This document shows, piece by piece, positions 1,971-49,824 of a stretch of 64,000 bases of DNA. This DNA is from Schizochytrium sp. TIO01. Its lineage: Eukaryota; Protista; Bigyra: Labyrinthulomycetes. The notes under the pieces were generated by a model. The model did no database searches, was not told the origin of the DNA, and was given only the letters and a program-made list of their open reading frames with translations. Positions within the stretch are counted from its first letter, which is position 1, and each line of letters starts with the position of its first letter. Where the stretch lies: NCBI GenBank assembly GCA_004764695.1, contig SMSO01000031.1, forward strand, positions 534,436 through 598,435. The letters are read 5' to 3'. A program made the position numbers and the translations under genes.

Positions 1971-3471
1971 AAGGAGCTCTCTCAGAGTCAGTTGGTGAGT
2001 GTCGGTCGTTGTGGTCTGAGTCGCACCGAGTTGGAGTTTTGCTTCACCGGCACCTTCATACGGCAGAGCATGAGCATGAAATCGCACAAAGCAGCTTTCA
2101 CAGAGAGAAGTCGAGAGTGAGTCAGATCTAAAGTTCCTCGCTCACGTGAGGAAGAGCATCACTCATTCTCTGTCTTCAGTAGTTCTGCAGAAAGAGCCGT
2201 GATCTGATCATGGGCGATAGCGCTCAATAGACGTGGATGGCACGACAGAACCATGCATGACATCATTCATGTGTCATGCATGGGATGTCATGGGATGTCT
2301 GTCATGTGCTGTCATGGCATGGCTTGACACGGACCAGGTAGCAGTGGGCAGAGCTGAGCAAAGCAGAGCAGAGCAGAGCAAAGAAGCGGGGAACAAACGA
2401 ACCAGCAGGAAGTAGAAAAGAAGCGAATGAGCAATCAAGCTAGCATTCGAAGAAAATTATGCAGGACTGGAGAGGAACCAGGAACTGGCTAGAAGTCACT
2501 AGGAGTCCCTCCTTGCCCAGCGGGCGGGTAGGCGCCGCTAGGGAAGAGCTACGAGGTGTCTAGTAGGTAGTTAGTCACTTAGTCACTTAGTCAGTCACTT
2601 AGTCAGTTAGTTAGTCAGTTAGTTAGTTAGGTAAAGGTACTCTTTTGGGCTACGAAAAGGAACAAACAAATATCTTTTCAAGGGAGAACTGCCCAACCGA
2701 CTGGCTGCTCGAGAATCAGCTGTGCCCGCCTGGCTGCCTGGCTGGCTGCCTGGCTGCCTTCAGCGGTGTCATCGGCTCGTCGTCGCCAGCATCTCCACCA
2801 GCCGTGGCTCATCGGAGCGAGCGAGCTCCCTCGAGCAGCCAGCCAGGTAGGTAGGTCCCTGCGCCGCTTGGGACGACTTGAGCCCAAAGGTCTCCAAAGC
2901 CGGACCCTCTACTGTTATGCAGGAGGGAGGTGGTAGTAGCAGCTCGCTAGCGCGAACAGTAGGAGCGGCCTCCGTAGGGGGTGCTAGGCGGCGGCTATGG
3001 TCGCCAGTGTCGAGTAAAAGTATCCTTGGACACCTCAGCTCTGTCTGAGGGAGGAGAGAACTTCCAGGACCCCTTTCGAGAGTGAGGTAGTTCCTCTTCT
3101 GTGTCTAGACAGGTCTGCGTCTGCGAGGCTTTGGGATACAGTCACCAAGAGCCTGAATCAAGTGAGGTCGCGAACCTCAGGTCGCGAACGTAGACAGGGG
3201 TGGAGGTGGCAGTAAGCAGGGGATAGTAGCTGGGATCGCCCGCCTTGTGCAGACAGTTCCTGATTGTACTGGCGAACTCGCCTCAGGGTCGAAGCCAAAG
3301 CCAAAGCCAAAGCAAAGCCAAAGCCAAAGCCGCTCGCTCTAAACAGGAACGAGGAGCCCGAGCTATCTGATCCAGTTCCACAACCGCGCGCCTGACCTCA
3401 ACGCCAGGGGAGCCCAATAAGCAGCGAGCGGTGCCAGTGCTGCCTGAGCTTGCTTCTTTTATTACCTCACC

Positions 3472-6396
3472 ATGCCTTCGCATCCCAACGAAAGTGGTGA
3501 CGACGAGGAGTCCCTCGACCCTCGGCGACTGTCTACGATTCGCCGTCAACGGTCGCGTGGACTCCGAAGCGCTGCATCGGCAATGACCTCTTCATCGAGG
3601 TTATCTGCATCGCCCTCCTCTTCGACAACGCCAGCACCCGCATCTTCCTCGAGGTCTCGCACGTCAAACCTACACCAACAGATTCTCCAGCGACAACACC
3701 AGCGAGAACTGGAGCTCCAGCGACGCCAGGAGCTTGAGGGTGATCATCAAAGTATTCGGAGAGATATTGAGGATAGGTTTTCACGTTCTGCAAATAGCTC
3801 TGCCATGCTCCGAAATGCAATCCCGTCAGCTTCGTCCAACTCTGCCAGTGCAACTATGCGAAGCGCCACTACATTACGAAGAAGCTCTTCAGATGCTATC
3901 GAGGGCTCCGACAGCTCTGCTGCGTCTCACTCGTCTCGAGATTCTGAGGAAAGCCCGCCTCCACGTCGCTCCATGCGAAGATCTGCGCGTTTACACGTTG
4001 CAGAAGCCTCCAGAACGCTCTTGCAGGTTTTGGGCCCTGTTCTGAGAGCCCAGGCATACAGAAACGAACGAGAGGCACTTCGAGGTGAGCTTGAGAGAGC
4101 CCTTGGCGTGAACTCGCATGATGACGACGACGACGATGTATTTCTTGGTCTGCATAGACCCGAGGACGACTGGGATGAAGACACACGCAAAATCATGCGA
4201 GGTTTGGACTCAGAAGTGGTGAAAGAACTCGGGAGATTTTCGCTTTCTGTCGACAACATTGGACGACTTGTCGTGGAACCTAATTTTCGCTACGAGGTGC
4301 AGCTTGCAGCAGCTAGCATAGAGCCTAGAGCTAGAGTGCTCAGACTTTCCAAGATCACAGCCGATAGCATCCCCCCATTGGTGTTACGCAACGTCGCTCT
4401 CTTCCTACGAAATTGTCCAATGCTACTTACACTACCAGACAACATGCGTATCGAAGGTAGTCTCATCATTGATCTCTGTCCGAGACTTACCTCATTAGGG
4501 AATGGTTTCGAGCTCACGTCTGGCGCCTGGTCTACAGAGGCGTTTACGCACCTCAGAAGCGAACTCCGTCACGCAAGACCGCGAGCTTCCTGGGAAAACC
4601 TCCTGTGGGCAGGTATTGACTCAGTTAAACGGGCTGAGGAGCTCTCTGATCGCAAGTGGTACGAAATCACATCAAGGCGCAGGAGCACACTCACGGATGC
4701 ACCTTTGCCCTCTGAGTTCCGCGTCAGAAAACCGGACATCATTACCCCTTCGTCAGCACTCAAAGGACTCCCTAATTCTGTTGATGGGTTTGCAGAGATT
4801 GATTGCCGTAAATGTAACTCTCTTGCAATACTTCCTGATATGCTATGTGTGGATGGAGACGCCAATTTCCAGTGGTGCTCGTCCGTTACAGAGCTGCCCG
4901 CTATTGTAGAGATTGGCGGAAATCTTGATCTCAGTTCCTGTAAAGCTCTACAGACGCTTCCCCATAATATTCATGTCGCAGGAGACCTTGTGCTTCGACA
5001 AGCAACAAGCTTGAGAGGCCTTCCCGACGTCCTCGAAGTTGGCGGAGACCTTAAATGTGGCGGCCTGCGTAGTCTTCAAACGCTTGGACAACAGCTAATT
5101 GTTCACGGGAGTCTTGACTGCAGTGCTTCACGTTCGCTCGAGTACCTTCCCGAGATCCTTATTGTGGAAAACGATCTCAATTGCTCTTCATGCATGAACC
5201 TCGTTGCGTTGCCGTCTGAACTATCAGTCGGTGGTGATGTATATCTTGAACGGTGTGAAAAAATTGATTCTCTGCCAAGCGAGATGCTTGGCTGGCCTGC
5301 ACGTGAAGATGGAGAGCCGCATGACGTATTCCTCGGCAATTCTGGTCTGAGTGTAACTTCGCTCGAATGGCTCCGTAATGTCGAAGCGCCGTTTCTACGT
5401 TTTCATGTCTCTCTCCGTGCTAACCGACGCAATGAAGAGGCTGTAGATGTACCTCCATTTCCTAATTTCACACAGGCAGTATCTTTCTGGCTTCAGTATG
5501 CTGCCACAGAGCAAGGTGACCCAATAAGTTTGGATTTCACAGCTGAAGATGTATCAAAGGCTGTCGATGACGCAAGTAAGCATGGCGTGCTGGTATTTTT
5601 GTCACGCTTGCGAGGAGCTAAAGAATTCTTACTCACGGAAATGCGACCACGTCTGGCTTGTCGTGTGTTGGAAGTCCTTGAGATCCTTGTCACTGACGAA
5701 GTAGCTCGGGAGGAAATTATTTTGCGCATGGTTGATAGTACTGATGCGTGTGATGACAAACCTATTTGGGCCTTAAATCAAATGCATCTGCAGGTGGAGA
5801 CAGCTCGAGCACGGGGGAGTGAAGCGAAGCTACGCAGCTTAGCACGACGCGTCATGAATTTGCAAGTTGTTCACGAGCACGCCATGGCAAAGTGCAACTC
5901 CCTGGGCTATGTGGACGATGTTTGTGTCTACCTACGGTTTGAAATTGCACTTATGGATGACTTAAACCTGCCGGTTTCTGCATTAGCTATGCACTTTCCC
6001 AAGTTCATGGAAATCAAAGATCGCGAGTTGGATGCAGCCCGGCAGGAAGCCCTTGCCATCACTGATGAGCAAGTGGAAGCCTTTCTCGTCACTTGGCCAG
6101 AGTGGCAACGGTTCCAGCGTGAGGAGATTGCTGCTGACATACGCTGGGATGAGCTTCCAGAGATGCGAGCTATGTCTCTTCGACGCAGTCTTCGTGACCT
6201 CTTTGGTTCAAAGGTTAAAGATCCAGTTATCTTTCGTGGCAAACAGTGGAGTATGAATGACTTGTTGCGTCATTGGGTTGCCCACGGGGTCGACTTTAAC
6301 AATGTTCCAGTTACTGCAGAAGAGATCCTCTCCGGACTTTCACGACCCAAGAATTCGCGTGTGTCGCGCAAATTCTGGTCCTTCTATATTGAATAA
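3472..6396 (+). CDS. LRR-containing NEL-type (IpaH/SspH-like) E3 ubiquitin ligase, 974 aa, with a possible C-terminal U-box-like domain
   Basis: Intronless ORF. About eight 22-aa repeats LPxxLxVxGxLxLxxCxxLxx at ~4760-5280, then an NEL-like region at ~5460-6120: FLSRL, STDACDDK (CxD, Cys760 at 5749-5751), DDVCVYLRFEIALMDDLNLP, MHF, FLVTWPEWQ. These match the IpaH motifs SCEDR, DEIEVYLAFQ..L...LQL, MRF and W.PW in order. Confidence 0.88.
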   Translation: MPSHPNESGDDEESLDPRRLSTIRRQRSRGLRSAASAMTSSSRLSASPSSSTTPAPASSSRSRTSNLHQQILQRQHQRELELQRRQELEGDHQSIRRDIEDRFSRSANSSAMLRNAIPSASSNSASATMRSATTLRRSSSDAIEGSDSSAASHSSRDSEESPPPRRSMRRSARLHVAEASRTLLQVLGPVLRAQAYRNEREALRGELERALGVNSHDDDDDDVFLGLHRPEDDWDEDTRKIMRGLDSEVVKELGRFSLSVDNIGRLVVEPNFRYEVQLAAASIEPRARVLRLSKITADSIPPLVLRNVALFLRNCPMLLTLPDNMRIEGSLIIDLCPRLTSLGNGFELTSGAWSTEAFTHLRSELRHARPRASWENLLWAGIDSVKRAEELSDRKWYEITSRRRSTLTDAPLPSEFRVRKPDIITPSSALKGLPNSVDGFAEIDCRKCNSLAILPDMLCVDGDANFQWCSSVTELPAIVEIGGNLDLSSCKALQTLPHNIHVAGDLVLRQATSLRGLPDVLEVGGDLKCGGLRSLQTLGQQLIVHGSLDCSASRSLEYLPEILIVENDLNCSSCMNLVALPSELSVGGDVYLERCEKIDSLPSEMLGWPAREDGEPHDVFLGNSGLSVTSLEWLRNVEAPFLRFHVSLRANRRNEEAVDVPPFPNFTQAVSFWLQYAATEQGDPISLDFTAEDVSKAVDDASKHGVLVFLSRLRGAKEFLLTEMRPRLACRVLEVLEILVTDEVAREEIILRMVDSTDACDDKPIWALNQMHLQVETARARGSEAKLRSLARRVMNLQVVHEHAMAKCNSLGYVDDVCVYLRFEIALMDDLNLPVSALAMHFPKFMEIKDRELDAARQEALAITDEQVEAFLVTWPEWQRFQREEIAADIRWDELPEMRAMSLRRSLRDLFGSKVKDPVIFRGKQWSMNDLLRHWVAHGVDFNNVPVTAEEILSGLSRPKNSRVSRKFWSFYIE

Positions 6397-8045
6397 TACA
6401 AGATTCCAAACCAGCTCGAAAAGGCGAATATGCAAAGTCTATGTTTTCGATCAGGCTTCTTAATTGTGTCTGGTATACGATGCCCCTAAATCTCATGGAG
6501 TAGCCATGCAAAGTGCTATCAACAGCCCGGGTGTTTTGATTTCGACTTATGTTCATTACATTCTCATGGGGGGTCAAAATTGATGTACAGAGTCTCAAAT
6601 CCAGTGTGCATCTTTTAGCATCGCCGGGAATCCTCTACCTCCTAATTTGTCTAACCCCGCGCAAAATAATTACACTAGTCCAAACATTGCACTCATAGAT
6701 GAGAGCTTCCCCAAGCGAAATTGCCACTTGGATATTTGTCCGGTGGAACGATAGTTTGAAATTGGGCTTGATATGACGTTACTGAAGGTCCATTCGTTCG
6801 TGCATTCTTTGTGACCTGAAGATCAAGCGATTCATTCGGTACAAAGGCTCTATTTATAAAAAGCAAAATGTTAGTCTGCTATAATAAGAGTCACCGTACA
6901 AACTTTCATGCGAGCTGTCACAAAGTGCCTCGAAGAGCGTAGCTTTCATATTCGTGACACTCAATGCGATTCCATCTGAAAAAGATGGAGTTTATAAGAC
7001 TTAGAGTTAATATCTTCATTATTCTCATTGAGGCTGCATCACCAGGTTCTTATGGTGTTGCCCTAGCTGATCATTAATTGTACAAACAAGGTTATTTTCT
7101 TTATTCCTCGTGAGTTTAGATAATGCGATTTCAAGGAATAGCCTCTAAGCAACTCCTATACTTCTTCTCCTCCTTACTTAGTTTCAAATTGCCTGCTACT
7201 CTGTAATTAATACCCCTGCTGCAATCTCTTTTTGATAATTATTGGAAAGTATCGCCAGACTGAGGCATGGTATAGAACGCATAAAAGAACTTATGGAACC
7301 TCCTTGCATATGTTGCACGTACTAATCAAAATACCCAGAATCAATTGACTGGTTCTCCGCGGATCTTGGCAGTTTTTACACATCATCCATTCAACCATCC
7401 ATCTATCTGATCTGTCATTGGGCTCTGGAAAAAAACAAAAACTATTAGGATATAGCAGCAGGTTCTATAGCATCATCTAGTTTACCTTCTCGGCTCCATT
7501 CATCCTTATGGAGTGACTGACAAATCACCTGCTACTAAAAAGAGCTCCTGCAAAAGCCAAGGTTTGATCTAGTTACCGAGTGAATGTGTCACCTAGTTAC
7601 TTAGCTCATTGATTTGATTCATTTCCAGGTCCAGTAGCATATGTCTATAGGTTTGACTACAAGTTGCAAATAGGACGAAGCAGCACCAACCAATCACTGG
7701 GTAAGAGAGAACGGGCACGTAAAAGAGAGTTTTAAAAGCAATAGTGAAGGGCTAAGTGTTTATAATCGTAGCCCTTTGGAACGAAAAGAACAGTCTACAC
7801 CTACCTATGTTTTCAGAAAGGTATTTTGAAGTAATAGTGGGTATAGAGAATATCATAGGGTAGAGAAGTGGTGAATCAGTGGCTTTGAATGAAATGGATA
7901 AATGAGTGGAAACGAAGTCGTGAATGTGGAGCGAGCGACTCGCAACAAACCCCGATTAACCAACCAATCGTTCAACCGACTGGGTTGATCGGTTGGTTAG
8001 ACCCACAATACCGCCAGTTTAGTTTCTGCGAGGGCAACTTTCACA

Positions 8046-9545
8046 ATGGGCAAGCGTCGGCGGCCTCAGGCGTCGGCTGTTGGCCCTCTCCGCGGAGATT
8101 CGCTCCTCGTAAACCGCATCAATGCACTTCTGGATGGAGCAGAAGTCGACTCTGAGGGCGAAGGATCTAAGCTCACCTCAGACAAGGCCTACGAACTCCT
8201 TGTACAAAAGCACAGAGAGTACGCCCGCAAGTCGGAAAAGGCTATTAAACAACTCCTCAGTTCCATCATCATCGACCGTCGTCAAGCTTCGAACTCCACG
8301 AAGTCTACCTCTGGAGATCCAAGCGGTGCCGATGCTGACGATGCCGAGGTCTCAAGCGACTCCGAAGCCGAGGCTGATGTTCCTGACATGCACAACATGC
8401 TAAACGGTGGGCTTTATGCTGCCAACCGCAAGAAGTCCCGTCTTGAAGCTGTAGCAGCTGCTGCCGATAAAAAACAACAGCAGCAGCAAACTCCAGGAAA
8501 GCGTCAACCTCTTAAAGGTCGAAGCAAGAGCAATCAACAGATGCGCTCCATGTTCAAAAACGCTGGTAACTCTGATTCGTTTGGCGTACAAGCGCAGCGA
8601 CCCGGAGTTCGTTTCAAAGATATGGGCGGTATTGATAACTGTATCAAAGACATCCGTGAACTTTGTGCATATCCTTTGGTTCATCCAGAGCTTTATGCTC
8701 ACCTCGGCGTTGAACCCCCTCGAGGCGTGCTCTTGCATGGACCTCCTGGTTCTGGTAAGACCATGCTTGCTCGTGCTATTGCGGGTGAATTAGATGTTGC
8801 CTTCTACTCAGTATCTGCCCCTGAGATTGTCAGTGGCATGAGTGGTGAGAGTGAGCAAAAATTGCGGGGCCTCTTCGAGGCGGCACGTGCTAATGCGCCT
8901 GCAATCATCTTTATCGACGAAATTGATGCTATCACTGGTAAGCGCGACTCGAGTAGCCGTGGCATGGAACGCCGCATTGTTGCCCAGTTGCTTACATGCA
9001 TGGATTCGATTGGTCACAACTCTGAAGCTGATGCAACTGAAGATGCTGAGGACAGTGCAGAAGATGACTCGAAGTCTAGTGCGGTTTTAGTTATTGGTGC
9101 TACAAACCGCCCCGACTCTCTTGATCCTGCTTTGCGTCGCGCAGGTCGCTTCGATCGAGAGATTGCCATGGGTATTCCTGATACGCCGTCACGTTGCAAA
9201 ATTCTTCAATGTCTATCTACGAAGATGAGACTTGAAGGTGATTTTGATTTTGAGGAAATTGCTCGCCTGACACCTGGTTTTGTTGGTGCTGATCTTGATG
9301 CTCTTTGCAAAGAGGCAGCCGTTATTTCCGTAAACCGTGTATTTCACTCACTCGGCGCCGATAATGACCCCGTTCGTTCTGTTGATACAATGCGGGAACC
9401 ATTTTCTCAAGAACAGCTTGATCCTGTTTTCATGAAAATGGACGATTTTTTGGAAGCTGTTGGCAAAGTCCAGCCTAGCGCGAAGCGTGAAGGTTTCGCA
9501 ACTGTACCTTCAGTAACATGGGATGATATTGGTTCTTTGGGCGAT
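8046..9545 (+). CDS. NVL: NVL/Rix7 (smallminded) double-AAA ATPase, exon 1 (N-domain + D1)
   Basis: [58 protein letters not shown]; GTAAGT donor at 9546. Confidence 0.93.
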
Positions 9546-9835
9546 GTAAGTATAATTTGGTATTTTAAGGGTGTAGAGAAAGTGTGGTTGGGTGTATACG
9601 GGCGCTATTTTCTCCTTAATTCAGTATCCACTGTGCAGTGAGGATCCAAAACAGTCGTTTGAAGTTCTGTGAAACTATTTTTACCTCCTACTCATTCTGA
9701 GCACTTTGTGGTGTACATCGAATTGAGTTGAGAGAAGTAGCGAATTCGTGTTCAAAGGTTGGGTAGTGGTTTGAGTTAACACTCAGATCGTGAACAATAT
9801 GACTAACTTCTTTAATCTATACTTATAAACAACAG
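9546..9835 (+). other. Spliceosomal intron (GT-AG, 290 nt)
   Basis: GTAAGT donor, GACTAAC branch site at 9801-9807, first downstream CAG ends at 9835; protein homology resumes immediately after. Confidence 0.85.
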
Positions 9836-10652
9836 ATTCCGGGAAGAGCTTAGCATGGCAATTACAGAGCCTATTCGTCACCCGGAGCGCTTCCGTGCTA
9901 TGGGCCTTACTGCTCCCATGGGTGTATTGTTGTATGGCCCTCCTGGTTGTGGTAAAACATTGACTGCCAAGGCTATTGCTAATAGTAGTGGCTCGAACTT
10001 CATTTCGGTGAAGGGTCCAGAACTACTCAATAAATACGTTGGTGAGTCAGAACGTGCCGTTCGCCAGGTGTTCTCTCGTGCACGCACTTCGGCTCCTTGT
10101 GTTGTATTCTTTGATGAACTCGATGCTCTGTGCCCTCGACGTGGCTCTGACGGAAGCAACGGTGTGAGTGAACGCGTTGTTAACCAATTGCTTACTGAGA
10201 TGGATGGTTTGGAGGAACGCCGTGAGGTCTTTGTTATTGCGGCTACTAACCGTCCTGATATAATTGACCCTGCAATTCTCCGTCCTGGCCGTCTCGACAA
10301 GCTTCTTTATGTCCCTCTTCCTACTCCTAAGGATCGTGTCGATATCCTCAAAACATGTGCTCGCAAGACTCCAATTGATTCTTCAGTTGATCTTGAATCA
10401 ATTGGTGTTTCGCCTCTGCTTGAGCGCTTCTCAGGTGCTGACTTGAATGCTCTTGTAAAGGAAGCTGCTATGAATGCTCTGAGGCGCATGCGTCACGAGG
10501 AAACTATCGACTCAAGCTCTGCTTGCATTGTAACTCCTCCTGATTTTGAAAAGGCTATGGGATCTATCCGGCCATCTATTTCCGAGAAGGATCAGCTTCT
10601 CTATCGGTCTATGGAAAGCTCTCCTTTGGGAGACACTGTAAACATCAAGTAA
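9836..10652 (+). CDS. NVL: NVL/Rix7 exon 2 (D2 AAA domain)
   Basis: [62 protein letters not shown]. One extra base at the exon start (see findings). Confidence 0.92.
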
Positions 10653-11756
10653 GGGTTCATGTTATTCTGGACATGTTATCCTGTCTTGATTATTATGTAG
10701 AAAAACATTGCATGTAATAATGAATATGTATGTATACCTTTTACCCTTCTTTCTGTCTGATGCCCCACATATTTCACATTACTGGTTTGAATCTGGTTTA
10801 AATGTTTGCTATCCTTGTTACCTATTACTTTTGTGTGAGAAGATTTTTCATGTGGAAGATTACTTGAGTATCGGCTGATTACTACTTCTTGGCATGAGGA
10901 TATTACAAAATGCTTGTTGCATGTTGATTAAGTTGTTTAACTTCCGTGCAATCCGTTTCACTACGAGGCATAGTATGCTGACTAGGGTGTTAGGAAGATG
11001 TTGAATGACCAGGTATTGTAGCTTTGCTTTTGCTTGAGTTTTAGCCCAAGAGAAAGGATTGATAGTAACAGCCTCTGACTTCTGAGAGTACAGTTTGTTA
11101 GTTTAAAACTTTAAAAAGGCCGTTTGATGACGGTGGCTAGGTCTGTCGTTGGCTTCGCACTACTAAAGGGCTTACAAATTAAATACAGGAGAGTAATGGT
11201 TATGTAGATTAGCGGTGGACATTGAGATGGGTTTCCCAGACCCCAAAGATCTCTCTGCAAATAGAATTTGTATCAGATCTCGCACTTATGTGGTCATCAC
11301 ATATCACCAAAGACCTTAACACATATACCTCTTTGCGGTATGATTTTCGTCATTACAAAGTGCACACGAGCAGTAAATCGAACCAGGAATCAGCTTTTCT
11401 TCCTCACTAAGCTGCATGTTCAATTGCGTTGCTCGCTGTTTCTCTTCATAGGAAAACAAACCAAGAACTAAAGAAAGATCTAACATTACACGTAAAGAAG
11501 AAGTTTTCACAAAGCCCATCCCTCCATTGCAGTCTTCAATGTTGGGGGTCCTCTTCAAGATCATCTCCGACGAGGCCATAGAACCTAGATGAACGACTTC
11601 AATATTGCTGCTGATTCATTGTAAATTCTTTCTTCTACTTTCCGTTTGTAGGAAAAAATAAAAGAAAAAGAAGAGGAAACTGTCTCTAGGCAGTGTTATA
11701 TATGTAACCCCTGAGCCCAACTTAATTTTGATGGCAGAACCAATATTTTATGAGGC

Positions 11757-36261: not shown

Positions 36262-38112
36262 CTACACCCTGTCTACAGCAAGCTTTCGCGAGGCGCGGAG
36301 GTTCGCACTAGCCCGAGCGCTAGCTCGTACACTCCGTACGCTATTACGGCCTCGATCTAATGAGACAAGAGACTCCCCATACGCTTTCATGAGGTCTGCA
36401 TTAAAGACATCAATTCCAACTTGAAGAATTTTCTTTGCGTCCTGAGAAACCTGCTCCTGGTTTGCCTTTTCGGGATCCTTCTTCTCATAAAAGGTGAAAA
36501 GGCGTGATTCAAGCGCAGCACCTTGCTTTGAGCGTTCATGTTCTTCTGGAAGAGTGATTTCTGGCAAAGGCGGCGGAGGCGGTTCATGCGGCAAAGGTGG
36601 TTTCTTCTGGTATTTACTGGATTTATCTGGTTTCGGTGGGGGCATGTCTGGGTGCGGACCGTCACTCGAAGAGCGCATTCGGCCCAAGCTGACCGGCAAT
36701 GGTTTGGCAATATCAGGTTCCTCGGCAAAGGTTGTGTCCACGAGAGATTTCCCATACCGCTTCTTGAGCTTCTTATTAAGATGCTCCACAGAATTTTCAT
36801 AACACCAATCCACGATCTGTTGAATGTCTTCTTCAGACTTTGTCGCGCCAACGGCGCCATAAAAGAGACGGAGTCGAGCTTTTAGACCAGAAGCTTCAAG
36901 ATCATCATCATATTTGCGGCGTAGAGTTTCGTTGAGGCGGTCAATGCCGTTAACCATAGCCCAGCCAGTTACAGTATCAAGTTGATGCTCATTCTCGGGC
37001 TCGAGCTTGGAGGGGTCGAATCGCGAGTAAAAGCGCACTAGTTGCTCGCGGACATCCTGGAACTCTTGGTCTACGTCAGTGAGGTCTTCACCATAGGTGG
37101 CACGAAGTGTATCATTGAGGGCAATTTCTCCTTCTACAATAGCAAACTCGAGCACAGGGGTTACCCCCTCCTCGAGAAGGCGATTCGGGTCGTGGCGAGC
37201 GTAAAAGACCTCGACAAGTTTACGAAGGTAGTCCTGGTACGCGATGTCAGCTTCAACCTGGGCCTCGGCCTCCTCACGACTCACAGTCTCAGAGGATCCG
37301 CTGAGACGTGCAAGCGCCCGGATGCTGTTTCGGAGACTTTGCCGGAGGGTTTTAGAATTGCGTGTGCTGCCTGGGCGACTGAAAGTTGTGGAGCGGCGAA
37401 CGATGGTGTTCATGTTAACGCCATATTTTTGTTGCAGACGACGGTTGATATCGTGGATGCCGTGTTTGAGCGTGAAATCTACGACCCACTCGAGGTTCTC
37501 TGGGTCAAGTTTCTCTGGCGCATTAGCATCATAGAATGTTTTGAGCTTCCTCTCAATTTCTTCTCTGACCTTGGTACGATCCATAGCTCCAAGGCCTTCT
37601 CCGTATTTGGTAACCATCTTCTGATTCAACGTTGTGAAACCGTGCACGATGCCCCATGTCAGCACGGTGCGAATATCCTCTTCGCTCTTTGCTGGATCGT
37701 GTTTCTCATAAAACGCCTCCAGCTGTACCAAGACATCCGACTCCATCACATCTTCTACACCTTCTCCAAATTTTCTTGCCAACTTGTCTGAGAGAACATC
37801 AACACCATTGTGCATCGCCCAGTCCGTGATAGCATCAATATCTGTGGGACTGTCCAGCTTCGCCACATCGTGTTTGATGTAGAACATTTCAATTCGAGAT
37901 CTTAGAACCTGTCGCTCAGCTGCTCCAAAGGATACGTCCACATTGCTGCCTATGTACGCCCCATACCTGTCCATAAGTGCGGCGTTGAGCGCCTCAATCC
38001 CCTCGGCAAGGCCGAAGTCCACAATGGCAGCAATGCCATGCTCCAAACGTGCAGGGTCATACTTTTGAAAGAACTCGACGAGCTTTGCATGGAGGACCTC
38101 GCGCTCTGTCAT
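36262..38112 (-). CDS. Uncharacterised protein with eight ~42-aa helical repeats (LxxFYxxxDPxK...GxxxLNxxLxxKYG) and a Pro-rich linker
   Basis: Long ORF with clear internal repeats; ATG at 38112 (the track starts at a TTG at 38205). Confidence 0.88.
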   Translation of the reverse strand: MTEREVLHAKLVEFFQKYDPARLEHGIAAIVDFGLAEGIEALNAALMDRYGAYIGSNVDVSFGAAERQVLRSRIEMFYIKHDVAKLDSPTDIDAITDWAMHNGVDVLSDKLARKFGEGVEDVMESDVLVQLEAFYEKHDPAKSEEDIRTVLTWGIVHGFTTLNQKMVTKYGEGLGAMDRTKVREEIERKLKTFYDANAPEKLDPENLEWVVDFTLKHGIHDINRRLQQKYGVNMNTIVRRSTTFSRPGSTRNSKTLRQSLRNSIRALARLSGSSETVSREEAEAQVEADIAYQDYLRKLVEVFYARHDPNRLLEEGVTPVLEFAIVEGEIALNDTLRATYGEDLTDVDQEFQDVREQLVRFYSRFDPSKLEPENEHQLDTVTGWAMVNGIDRLNETLRRKYDDDLEASGLKARLRLFYGAVGATKSEEDIQQIVDWCYENSVEHLNKKLKKRYGKSLVDTTFAEEPDIAKPLPVSLGRMRSSSDGPHPDMPPPKPDKSSKYQKKPPLPHEPPPPPLPEITLPEEHERSKQGAALESRLFTFYEKKDPEKANQEQVSQDAKKILQVGIDVFNADLMKAYGESLVSLDRGRNSVRSVRASARASANLRASRKLAVDRV

Positions 38113-47049: not shown

Positions 47050-49824
47050 TTACACAGTGACCGAGGGCACGTCGACCTCCTCCACTTCGAGCGCGCCGCA
47101 TTCCTTTTTGAGGAATTCGTCGAGCTCGCGCATAGAGGACTCTGCGTTCTGCTTTTTCCGTGCGGCACGGTCACGATCTGCGGAGGATTTGTCAGTAGAC
47201 TTTGAGAGAGATGCCTCTCCATTGGCGTTAGAGCCGCCATGAACAGTGTCATTAGCCAGGACATTGAGAGCCGAAGGCAAATTACTAAAGGAAAAGATGG
47301 AAGCGTTGTTGTTACGCGGTGTCGGGCGCAAAAAGGATGCTGCATTGAAAAGCGAGTGTTCAGACATCTTTGTTCCGTAGAGCGAGGAACCAAAGTTGTG
47401 CGAAAGCTTATGGGTCAGTTTGGCCGTGGATAAAGACTTCCAGGACTTTGTAGCACGTAGAGTGAGATCGTCGGCGTTACCCGTAGCGATGTGCTCCAGG
47501 TCTTGTGTAAACCTTTCGAGGTCTGCGGTAGTGCTGTGGAGTTTATCTTCCTCATGCCCTGAGTTTCCAGACTCTGTGAGGGAGCTGTCCGGAGTGGTTG
47601 TCAGGGTGTTTAGGGTCAAGTTTGGTCTGCGGCTGTTGCTAGCTGATGAGTTTGTGTTGCCGGATTCATGGCGGCCAGTGGATGAAGACAGCACACCGTT
47701 GAAGTTAAAGTGCGACTGATGTCTGGGCGTATGCCTAGGGGTGAGGCGATCCGCTTCCAACAGGCTATCAAGACCAGCACGTAAGCTGAGAGTGGACATG
47801 ACCGGGTAGAGACTGCCAATGGTCTCCTCGGTAGACTTTTCCTCCTCGCGAGCTGTGCGCGGAAGGAACTCAGCATCAGGTTGAGACACGTGGCCAAGAA
47901 AGACATTCTGGTAAGCCTTGAGAAGGTTGAGCATAAAGGCAACAGTACCGTACGGGTCATGCTGGCGCTGCTCGAGCGGCTGGTCACGAGCGAATTGAAC
48001 AATTCGGCCACCAAAGCGCTCATCTTCCACGAGAAACTTGCTGAAGCCGACTTCATCCATGAGGTAGTCATCACAAGGGGCACGCCGAGCGGTATTACTT
48101 TCACGTCCTGATCGGCGACGAATGCCTGGGCCTGCACAAGGCTGTCCAAGCTTGTCAGAAGGAACGGAGAGCCAATGGCGTGCGAGGTCCAGTGCGGTCG
48201 CGCTAAAGTGCTGAAATTCACCATGATCACGAAGCGAAAGTGAAGCACGCGGTTCAGTATTCTTGGTAGAAAAGTTGATCATACGCAGGAGCTCGTAAAG
48301 ACATACCTGTCGCGGGTCTGTCATTTCGTCCAAGCTCTTGCTCGTACCTGTAGCCGCGTTCGGGCCGTTGTTGCTGCCCTTAAACGGCTCAAGTTGCGGA
48401 ATAGACTGCGACCGTGATAAATGGTTTGAGTCAAAACATGTTGCCCAGCTTTGGCCTCCCGATCGTGTGTTATGCTGATGTTGATAGCTGTTGCTCGGGC
48501 TCGCAGGCTCCAAAGACTCGCTCGAGGTTCGCTTCTTCGTAAAACCTGAACGTCCGGAAATTGTAAGCCTTTCTTGCGAGGCCAAGCGTCGTACGTACTG
48601 TTTCACTCCAGGGTACGCCTGAGGAGGAGGTGGGGCGGCGGTGGCATGCTCTGACCAGACGCTCGGCATTGCGGTATGCGGCATCGCGTGCGGGCGCGGT
48701 GCACCGGGGTGTCCCCTGGTATTGTTGCTGTTGTTGTTGTTGTTGTTGCTACTGCTGCTGCCCGAGGTGTACTCGCTGTAGTCGTCCATGGCGCTGTTAT
48801 GATGAAGCTGTTGCTGGTGCATAGTGTACTGATCGTAGTGACTGCCGGGGTACGGAGAAGGCGGTCCTGAAGAAGAGGATGCAGAGACATAGGCGTTGTG
48901 CTGCGTGGAGAGGTGGCGGTTGCCGACGGTGATCTCAGGGCCGCTCGAGTAGCAGTCGGAGGCAGGGTCGCTCGGGTACCGGCGAGCCTGAAGAGGCACG
49001 GTGCGGTGGTGCAGACTTGTGGTAGGCTGCGAAGCCGGGTGGCGCTGGAGGCGAGGCACCTCGGCCTCACGACGCTTCTTGACACGGCGCACGGGCAGCG
49101 GTGGGCTGTTCATCGGCAGGCGGGTCTGCTGTGCGTTTTGGATCTTGGTAGGCACACCATTCTCGATGCGCGGTGGCAAGACTCCATTGCGGTTGCGGCG
49201 ACGGCAGAAGAGCTTCCACTTAGGGGAGGTGACAGCTGCCAATACGCGGTAGTGCTCAGGGCGCTTTGCGGAGCCAGGGATGAGCTCAAGCACGTAGGCA
49301 CGGAAGTTGTGGTACACGTTACGCGTAAGCTTGCTGCCGAGGAAGCCGTAGTGCCATCCCTTGAGGTTGCGATTGAACTCGAAGTTGACACGTACGCTAC
49401 CGTCTGCGTCAATGCGGCGGTCCTGAAGCTCGAGACCCTCAATGTACTCCAGCAGAGGCTCGTCGGCTTGTCTAATCTTAGAGCGGACCTGCTCAATAGA
49501 AAGAACATCGCCGGGCTTGAAGCGCTCACGAGAGACACCTTTGGCTGCTGCGGCTGCTGGGCTGTTAAGCTCACAGTCAGCAATGCAAAAGTGCGCAAAG
49601 CTGTAAAGCTGCCCCTGGATAGATTGCGGCAAGTAGTAGAAGTTAATTACAATGCTGTGGCCGCAGAATCCGCGCTGGTGGCCGAGTCCCTGGCAGTGGT
49701 TGGGGAAACAACGAAGGTTTTTCTGCCCATTTGCCTTGTTGTTGCGCTGATATGCCTGAGCCCACTGGATGTTACTGTGGAACTCGAGTCTTGGCACAAG
49801 ATCACACATGTCTTTGCTATCCAT
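47050..49824 (-). CDS. 924-aa protein with a Cys/His-containing N-terminal domain and long disordered regions; putative transcription factor
   Basis: Long ORF with coding-like codon bias. N-terminal ~210 aa globular (YQRNNK..GQKNLRCFP.HC..GH..GFCG; GWHYGFLGSK; VTSPKWKLFCRRR); NLS-like RRVKKRR; poly-N, Gln/His/Ser/Pro-rich tracts. Function is inference. Confidence 0.85.
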   Translation of the reverse strand: MDSKDMCDLVPRLEFHSNIQWAQAYQRNNKANGQKNLRCFPNHCQGLGHQRGFCGHSIVINFYYLPQSIQGQLYSFAHFCIADCELNSPAAAAAKGVSRERFKPGDVLSIEQVRSKIRQADEPLLEYIEGLELQDRRIDADGSVRVNFEFNRNLKGWHYGFLGSKLTRNVYHNFRAYVLELIPGSAKRPEHYRVLAAVTSPKWKLFCRRRNRNGVLPPRIENGVPTKIQNAQQTRLPMNSPPLPVRRVKKRREAEVPRLQRHPASQPTTSLHHRTVPLQARRYPSDPASDCYSSGPEITVGNRHLSTQHNAYVSASSSSGPPSPYPGSHYDQYTMHQQQLHHNSAMDDYSEYTSGSSSSNNNNNNSNNTRGHPGAPRPHAMPHTAMPSVWSEHATAAPPPPQAYPGVKQYVRRLASQERLTISGRSGFTKKRTSSESLEPASPSNSYQHQHNTRSGGQSWATCFDSNHLSRSQSIPQLEPFKGSNNGPNAATGTSKSLDEMTDPRQVCLYELLRMINFSTKNTEPRASLSLRDHGEFQHFSATALDLARHWLSVPSDKLGQPCAGPGIRRRSGRESNTARRAPCDDYLMDEVGFSKFLVEDERFGGRIVQFARDQPLEQRQHDPYGTVAFMLNLLKAYQNVFLGHVSQPDAEFLPRTAREEEKSTEETIGSLYPVMSTLSLRAGLDSLLEADRLTPRHTPRHQSHFNFNGVLSSSTGRHESGNTNSSASNSRRPNLTLNTLTTTPDSSLTESGNSGHEEDKLHSTTADLERFTQDLEHIATGNADDLTLRATKSWKSLSTAKLTHKLSHNFGSSLYGTKMSEHSLFNAASFLRPTPRNNNASIFSFSNLPSALNVLANDTVHGGSNANGEASLSKSTDKSSADRDRAARKKQNAESSMRELDEFLKKECGALEVEEVDVPSVTV

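Follow-up and report, generated by a model that had tools for sequence, protein, structure and literature searches.

The protist Schizochytrium sp. TIO01 almost certainly carries, as a gene of its own, a putative E3 ubiquitin ligase built on the NEL domain, which is called exclusive to bacteria in the available part of PMC9320238. The gene lies in a stretch of 64,000 nucleotides, here called the window (contig SMSO01000031.1, positions 534,436 to 598,435), where an intronless open reading frame (ORF) at 3472-6396 on the forward strand runs from ATG to stop and encodes 974 residues. The protein combines leucine-rich repeats (LRRs), a NEL catalytic core and, in the position of the usual helical thumb, a predicted U-box fold. 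The original prediction, made from the letters alone, had described a bacterial effector of the IpaH type, acquired horizontally and domesticated. Our joint reading, which we consider probable, is that of a selected protist gene from an expanded family that likely goes back to one ancient transfer from bacteria, whose product would work as a Cys-relay ligase with a U-box-fold tail that recruits the E2. The features on which the argument depends are these:

3472-6396, forward strand: ORF of the LRR-NEL-U-box-like E3 ligase, 974 residues (Pfam NEL match; Hondaea orthologue GBG27871.1)
3472-4011, forward strand: low-complexity N-terminus, residues 1-180, 25% Ser and 16% Arg
4357-4506, forward strand: about two upstream LRR-like repeats, residues ~296-345, followed by an insert of ~85 residues (repeat pattern)
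4765-5307, forward strand: main LRR array, residues 432-612, 8-9 repeats of 21 residues (period, structural model, VIA comparison)
5452-6126, forward strand: NEL catalytic subdomain, residues ~661-885 (Pfam PF14496, family profile, Foldseek)
5749-5757, forward strand: catalytic CxD in the motif ACDD, Cys760 (codon 5749-5751) and Asp762 (IpaH9.8 alignment)
5914-5916, forward strand: Asp815, aligned with Asp397 of IpaH9.8
6127-6366, forward strand: predicted U-box-fold domain, residues ~886-965 (model, Foldseek and VIA, hhalign)
8046-10652, forward strand: neighbouring NVL/Rix7-like AAA ATPase with one GT-AG intron at 9546-9835, given for context

The catalytic core is recognized by sequence and by structure. 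The Pfam NEL profile (PF14496) spans residues 704-887 with an E-value of 1.4e-21 and 77.3 bits against a cut-off of 24. A phmmer search of the PDB returned 11 chains of IpaH9.8, IpaH1.4, SlrP, IpaH3 and SspH1 (E 4.5e-7 to 3.2e-6); with a family profile of 15 rows, the IpaH, SlrP and SspH1 structures come up at E 3e-36 to 1e-26. The all-helical NEL fold is present (Foldseek ranks 1-8) in an AlphaFold2 (AF2) model of residues 430-974, built from a 19-row alignment with a predicted local distance difference test score (pLDDT) of 88 and a predicted template-modelling score of 0.54. SspH1, SlrP, IpaH3 and SspH2 are its top Foldseek matches, with E down to 3e-13. Both comparisons proposed earlier, with the Pfam NEL profile and by Foldseek with IpaH3 and SspH2, thus gave matches.

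The phmmer alignment places Cys760, Asp762 and Asp815 on C337, D339 and D397 of IpaH9.8, and the NEL identity with an intact CxD that had been claimed is upheld. In the IpaH9.8 chain Asp397 follows the Cys at a distance of 60 residues; these three residues are named as catalytic in the available part of PMC9320238. The catalytic Cys and the Asp two positions on occur in 81/81 rows of the protist-side clade and 70/70 bacterial-side rows of the tree described below. At the Asp815 site the protist-side clade has Asp in 79 of 81 rows and Glu in the other 2. That the ORF product is an active Cys-dependent E3 we consider quite probable.

What follows the core is different. Classic NELs end in a helical thumb that binds ubiquitin-charged E2 (E2~Ub), residues 623-697 in SspH1, according to the available parts of PMC12506513 and PMC12584752. 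Past the shared WxxW motif, classic and window-type proteins alike have tails of 82-101 residues. The window tail is unrelated in sequence to five classic NEL thumbs (hhalign 0.1%), and the structural alignment with SspH1 ends at SspH1 residue 628, which corresponds to residue 888 of the window protein. The E2~Ub-binding thumb is absent, and the model has a hairpin-helix U-box fold at its position, spanning residues 899-962. Modelled alone with AF2 from a 28-row alignment, the tail reached a pLDDT of 82; its top 44 rows in VIA carry U-box, RING, E3-ligase or spliceosome-entry titles. The idea of a straight IpaH-like enzyme therefore stands for the NEL core with its intact CxD and falls for the thumb.

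Bacterial intermediates make the U-box homology firmer. Between the tails of the bacterial relatives and the window tail, hhalign gives a match of 95% (E 3.5e-8). Searched against the PDB as a profile of 16 rows, the bacterial tails find U-box-type entries only (10/10), with Prp19 at E 9e-6 and LubX at E 3e-4. The Pfam U-box was found in none of 40 bacterial-side proteins at E<=0.01, and PF04564 matched 2 of 16 bacterial tails, at E>=0.01 only.

At the other end of the protein, the LRR array followed by NEL motifs is as had been described, with the 21-residue LRRs in the model and all the quoted motifs present in order. Pfam LRR models give no match in residues 430-659; the 21-residue period is plain in the sequence despite this silence, and the first ~190 residues of the model fold as an LRR. 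In VIA this block scores Z 19.9 to PDB entry 8z5u and 16-17 to the LRRs of IpaH and SspH1. The main array is predicted to be a substrate-binding and autoinhibitory module. 8z5u chain 0, the best structural match, is the chain of an LRR protein in a structure of a polar flagellar motor, so this LRR type serves outside effectors too. The upstream LRR-like repeats are conserved in the orthologue of Hondaea fermentalgiana; the Ser/Arg-rich residues 1-180, which are likely disordered, are missing from the Hondaea gene model.

Could the gene be bacterial contamination, or a chimeric join? The lack of introns and a domain described from bacteria alone would suit this. The join to host DNA, however, recurs in independent material. 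Of the words sampled from 3000-8500, at least half occur in each of twenty runs, which come from 12 studies; four runs (X1, a DNA run, and X4, X17 and X19) were compared over 3340-11000. In the independent run X4 a single 7,053-base contig spans 3340-9545 without a gap and with 21 differing letters; it carries the NEL gene together with exon 1 of NVL, in a set of alleles other than the window's, which refutes contamination. X17 and X19 each span the NEL ORF in a single contig. None of the four runs has a splice joint inside the ORF, in line with the intronless gene first described. The adjoining NVL gene is spliced, as had been stated: its intron begins with GT at 9546 and ends with AG at 9834-9835, and the spliced joint appears in three of the four runs, X4, X17 and X19, and not in the DNA run. 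A gap in X19 at 7180-7947 and contig ends near 7101-7106 were set aside as evidence, because the DNA run breaks there too.

The best named relative, Hondaea GBG27871.1, is 69% identical over residues 186-974 and shares the C-terminal end. The Hondaea NVL orthologue is 83% identical to the window NVL, and the records of both orthologues list a 265,701-base contig, which indicates that the NEL-NVL linkage is conserved. GC content at third codon positions (GC3) is 0.46 in the NEL ORF, inside the 0.39-0.62 range of 11 other window ORFs, and most neighbouring window genes are long intronless ORFs too. A GTDB scan with protist-type patterns confirmed 0 of 4 pattern matches. The probability of contamination is thus close to nil, and the earlier argument against it gains the bridging X4 contig, the Hondaea linkage and the host-like GC3.

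The NVL gene itself shows a small anomaly. At 9837 the window has one extra base compared with the X1 and X4 contigs, which puts exon 2 out of frame with exon 1 in the window. The spliced joints in X4, X17 and X19 also fit the shorter form at 9836-9838, and the extra base is probably an assembly error.

Among strains, 15 of the 18 differences in the ORF are synonymous, against 24% expected (p 2e-7); in residues 291-974 all 11 of 11 are. On these counts the gene is under purifying selection in the protist. The same data bear on the proposal that the protein is exported as an effector, with prey, hosts, or bacteria or viruses inside the cell as targets, and is not a housekeeping E3. Effector ancestry and a large, diverse LRR family do resemble an arms-race repertoire. 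Yet the N-terminus shows by eye no hydrophobic stretch of the signal type (no signal predictor was applied), the one-to-one Hondaea orthologue is 82% identical in the NEL-U-box part, and the strains differ by no amino acid at 291-974. High orthologue identity and the lack of strain changes argue against rapid evolution of this copy, and we regard export as highly improbable. This copy may have a defence role inside the cell.

The gene does not stand alone. At E<=0.001 a family profile found 2,232 representatives, and the comparison drew on the 150 best. In a FastTree of 151 domains (164 proteins less 6 of short cover and 7 near-identical copies), 81 rows including the window protein separate from 70 others with support of 100. 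Named members on the 81-row side come from Hondaea (at least eight proteins), Mucochytrium quahogii and Thraustochytrium sp. LLF1b. MMETSP transcripts supply five members, and metagenome loci L001 and L002 carry others; the neighbours of L001 look by eye like eukaryotic glucosyltransferase and Spo11/Top6A genes. Automatic labels vary: the UniRef Mucochytrium protein is 'NEL domain-containing', and Hondaea copies go under wrong names such as RPP5 and importin alpha.

A Pfam scan, which covered 40 of the 81 members in its main part, revealed N-terminal fusions to Arm (P0015, P0018, P0034, P0035, P0077), to SPRY, alone or together with a second LRR type (P0011, P0020, P0029, P0031, P0039, P0047, P0057, P0063, P0071) and to SAM (P0007, P0053). 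All three domains recur across independent assemblies. C-terminal fusions (tubulin, LSm1, PDCD5-like, PCI, kinase) occur once each, are probably merged gene models and were left uncounted. By its sequences, this is an expanded, domain-shuffled NEL-U-box family and not a stray gene. Domestication, as first suggested, is borne out by the purifying selection, by an orthologue with shared linkage and by this expansion with eukaryotic domains.

Where did the family come from? A GTDB scan with the bacterial-side alignment yielded 68 loci. Carriers of LRR-NEL-U-box genes are Chlamydiae (Rhabdochlamydiaceae and others), Endozoicomonas and a gammaproteobacterium; one representative is Ca. Rhabdochlamydia. 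HrcV, a protein of type III secretion systems (T3SS), scored above the cut-off in 3 of 3 bacterial carriers examined, against 0 of 14 controls. Viral contigs gave 0 of 25, no sign of a viral vector at that sensitivity, and a plasmid scan gave four weak classic-NEL matches at ~26%.

The main origin tree has 47 rows, was computed under LG+C20 and is rooted on 10 classic NELs. It unites the protist clade with the bacterial U-box type in one branch (99/99), from which the classic NELs of IpaH and SspH are separate; a phylogeny of protist and bacterial homologues had been proposed earlier. The data are consistent with a single origin of the protist family. Within the branch, the neighbour of the protist clade is a bacterial group of 12 rows (86/85) and neither Endozoicomonas nor Chlamydiae; a tree of 73 rows under LG+G4 does not settle this node.

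The approximately unbiased (AU) test does not reject the protist clade as sister to all U-box-type bacteria (p 0.16). Since the bacterial U-box type may then be monophyletic, the NEL-U-box type might have arisen in eukaryotes and passed to host-associated bacteria, or have a shared origin; that the U-box is mainly a eukaryotic fold would suit this. On the other side, the classic NEL outgroup is entirely bacterial, the bacterial U-boxes are the more canonical ones, and the named eukaryotic members are labyrinthulomycetes only, apart from those labelled Durusdinium trenchii. We find a reverse or shared origin quite unlikely. Given an outgroup that is bacterial, a U-box that is more canonical in bacteria and a narrow range among eukaryotes, we see in transfer from bacteria to protist, as judged from the sequences, a strong probability.

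The family likely came from a bacterium that has a T3SS and belongs to the LRR-NEL-U-box subfamily; Chlamydiae and Endozoicomonas are among the members of that subfamily. The suggestion that the LRRs resemble those of Endozoicomonas holds in part. Among the fetched loci, a biased set, the window LRR block is closest to Endozoicomonas LRRs (~41% identity, up to 42%), the Shigella loci give no match to it at E<=1e-3, and the architecture agrees. As donor, Endozoicomonas has no support from the trees, the protist clade being placed beside a different bacterial group.

Several bacterial loci call for separate mention. The Endozoicomonas sp. metagenome-assembled genome (MAG) CBDAPN01 (L018-L036) holds 15 LRR-NEL-U-box loci, several with two copies and partly in tandem, a candidate for an undescribed effector family of marine animal symbionts. 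Locus L035, titled Salinisphaera sp. G21_0, has a NEL-U-box gene nested among Endozoicomonas sequences, through mislabelling or transfer. A MAG titled uncultured Verrucomicrobiae (L006, L012) carries several Chlamydia-type LRR-NEL-U-box genes and is possibly a mislabelled chlamydia. In the bacterial-side NEL-U-box protein P0155 an AAA ATPase (E 5e-17) takes the N-terminal place of the LRRs.

How might such an enzyme work? We favour a mechanism in which the U-box-like domain (residues 886-965) would bind E2~Ub, as its position, its fold and the absent thumb suggest; on the models we hold this docking role to be rather likely. Ubiquitin would then pass to Cys760 as a thioester, by analogy with IpaH, and Asp762 and Asp815 may, by the same analogy, aid transfer to a substrate lysine. 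The 21-residue LRRs would select the substrate and probably autoinhibit; in paralogues the observed Arm, SPRY or SAM domains may serve as other front ends. The enzyme likely acts inside the protist's own cell. We also lean, by a little, towards a broader statement: that labyrinthulomycetes run a native 'U-box-Cys relay' class of E3, derived from LRR-NEL-U-box T3SS effectors, with at least eight copies per genome and Arm, SPRY or SAM front ends.

A number of observations weigh against this reading. The favoured mechanism is drawn from sequence and models. For most tree rows the labels 'protist' and 'bacterial' are inferred, and an organism name stands on 1 of 10 bacterial-side proteins looked up. 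The protist clade has support of 88/85 with the long row P0121 and 98/94 without it, and its nesting inside the bacteria is not significant by the AU test quoted above. Two members (contigs of ~11 kb) are labelled Durusdinium trenchii, and three more share the accession series (P0034, P0069, P0011, P0081 and P0121 in all, contigs 10-28 kb). Four of these five nest among thraustochytrid sequences and P0121 lies at the clade base; they may represent a second lineage, or the assembly may be contaminated with labyrinthulomycete DNA. As to transcription of the NEL gene there is a hint only: no run is catalogued as RNA, and the RNA status of X4, X17 and X19 is a tool's guess. For the tail, the top Foldseek matches are U-box/RING entries (Prp19, LubX, UBE4B), all at E>=0.3. 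The best VIA match, AvrPtoB (Z 6.3, root-mean-square deviation 3.2, 78 residues aligned; UBE4B Z 4.5), stays below the tool's confidence level of 8, and Pfam, PF04564 included, has no match to the window tail at E<=1. Lastly, the protist-clade U-box is degenerate: its first Cys, present in 69/70 bacterial rows, is gone, and the loop-2 Pro is missing in 78/81 rows.

These losses and the modest fold scores would suit an active NEL ligase whose tail is a degenerate remnant, or a dimer- or ubiquitin-binding surface, with E2~Ub docking on the NEL core. Against this, the tail is retained in 78/81 protist-side and 69/70 bacterial-side rows, and the protist clade conserves a hydrophobic residue at 910, G912, P918, W935, G939 and D941. 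Moreover, hydrophobic 910 and H/R 934 align with Prp19 U-box positions that we take to be E2 contacts, and the protein lacks the classic thumb, on which E2~Ub is known to dock. We consider a remnant tail unlikely.

The chain could also hold two ligases, the U-box driving direct RING-style transfer independently of Cys760 or alongside it. The near-canonical U-boxes of the bacterial relatives, with the Prp19 and LubX matches given above, speak for this, and 39/70 bacterial rows keep the loop-2 Pro, 16 of those 39 with an Arg three residues on. But the catalytic Cys is invariant in 151/151 rows, and at the place of the Pro the protist clade has mostly Asn (59/81), which would fit a dock better than an allosteric activator. 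Two ligases in one chain are, in our view, very unlikely. The missing loop-2 Pro would be in keeping with the relay that we prefer, in which, by analogy with RBR and RING-Cys-relay (RCR) ligases, the dock would have no need to activate E2~Ub for direct transfer.

Other genes of the window are noted here in passing. A RING and zf-Di19 E3 ligase gene (RNF114/138-like) lies 5 kb away from the NEL gene, at 11757-12545 on the reverse strand. The reverse strand also has, at 17578-19308 and 21284-22648, two lipase-like genes in tandem (Pfam Lip_C, PF24708); both lack introns and may likewise be of bacterial type. An ORF at 26845-28548 on the forward strand, with two RGS stretches and a weak TMEM175-like N-terminus, is perhaps a membrane RGS protein. 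The reverse-strand ORFs 47050-49824 (924 residues, GC-rich, GC3 0.62) and 36262-38112 (616 residues) have no significant Pfam match.

Since thraustochytrids are open to culture and transformation, the claim lends itself to direct tests. The bacteria-only view of NELs is overturned by a conserved, expanded clade of eukaryotes, and the transfer runs in an unusual direction, from effector to host machinery. If the reading is true, a bacterial weapon has become a class of the host ubiquitin system and converges on the logic of RBR and RCR. The analysis further points to an effector subfamily, so far unrecognised, in environmental Chlamydiae and in Endozoicomonas. The replacement of the thumb by a U-box is a natural experiment on the handover of ubiquitin from E2 to the NEL Cys, a step so far uncaptured structurally according to the available part of PMC12506513.

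In the parts available, PMC13720258, PMC12591485 and PMC11354881 list only bacterial NEL members. We found no report of thraustochytrid NELs or NEL-U-box proteins within the reach of our search, which ended short of subscription papers and bioRxiv supplements; the term NEL is absent from four supplement files of PMC12221091. A Klebsormidium NLR 'NEL' (PMC7145615, available part) is equated there with the LRR superfamily (ODAL), with no catalytic evidence, and was not counted as a eukaryotic NEL.

How does the protein compare with known systems? Like IpaH, SspH1, SspH2, SlrP and NopM, it has LRRs followed by a helical NEL catalytic subdomain and conserves the CxD and the D397-equivalent Asp; these are its best matches in sequence and structure. 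Unlike them, it is encoded in a eukaryotic chromosome and not in a T3SS-bearing bacterium, its helical thumb gives way to a predicted U-box fold, its 21-residue LRRs are of another type, and its motif is CxDKP rather than CxDR[VI]. It scores far below three NCBIfam equivalog cut-offs of the IpaH/SspH/SlrP family (28/1113, 29/550 and 17/1243 bits). Because it lacks the thumb, falls below these cut-offs and is eukaryotic, the window protein is, by its sequence, in the PF14496 catalytic family and not in the IpaH/SspH/SlrP family.

Closer relatives are the LRR-NEL-U-box proteins of Chlamydiae and Endozoicomonas, whose database label is 'NEL-type E3 ligase domain-containing'. They share the three-part layout, the LRR type (at most 42% identity), a homologous tail and a joint branch, but sit in T3SS-bearing bacterial genomes and have a more canonical U-box; identity to the bacterial-side protein P0019 is ~29% over the NEL-U-box part. 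The predicted fold of residues 899-962 resembles Prp19, UBE4B, CHIP, LubX, AvrPtoB and NleG. Those U-box ligases have no catalytic Cys relay, whereas the window domain lacks a Pfam U-box match and the loop-2 Pro. In RBR and RCR ligases E2~Ub docks on a RING-like fold, and a Cys apart from that fold takes over the ubiquitin. The layout proposed here is like theirs by analogy only, with no homology of the catalytic domains; both classes are named in the available part of PMC13720258.

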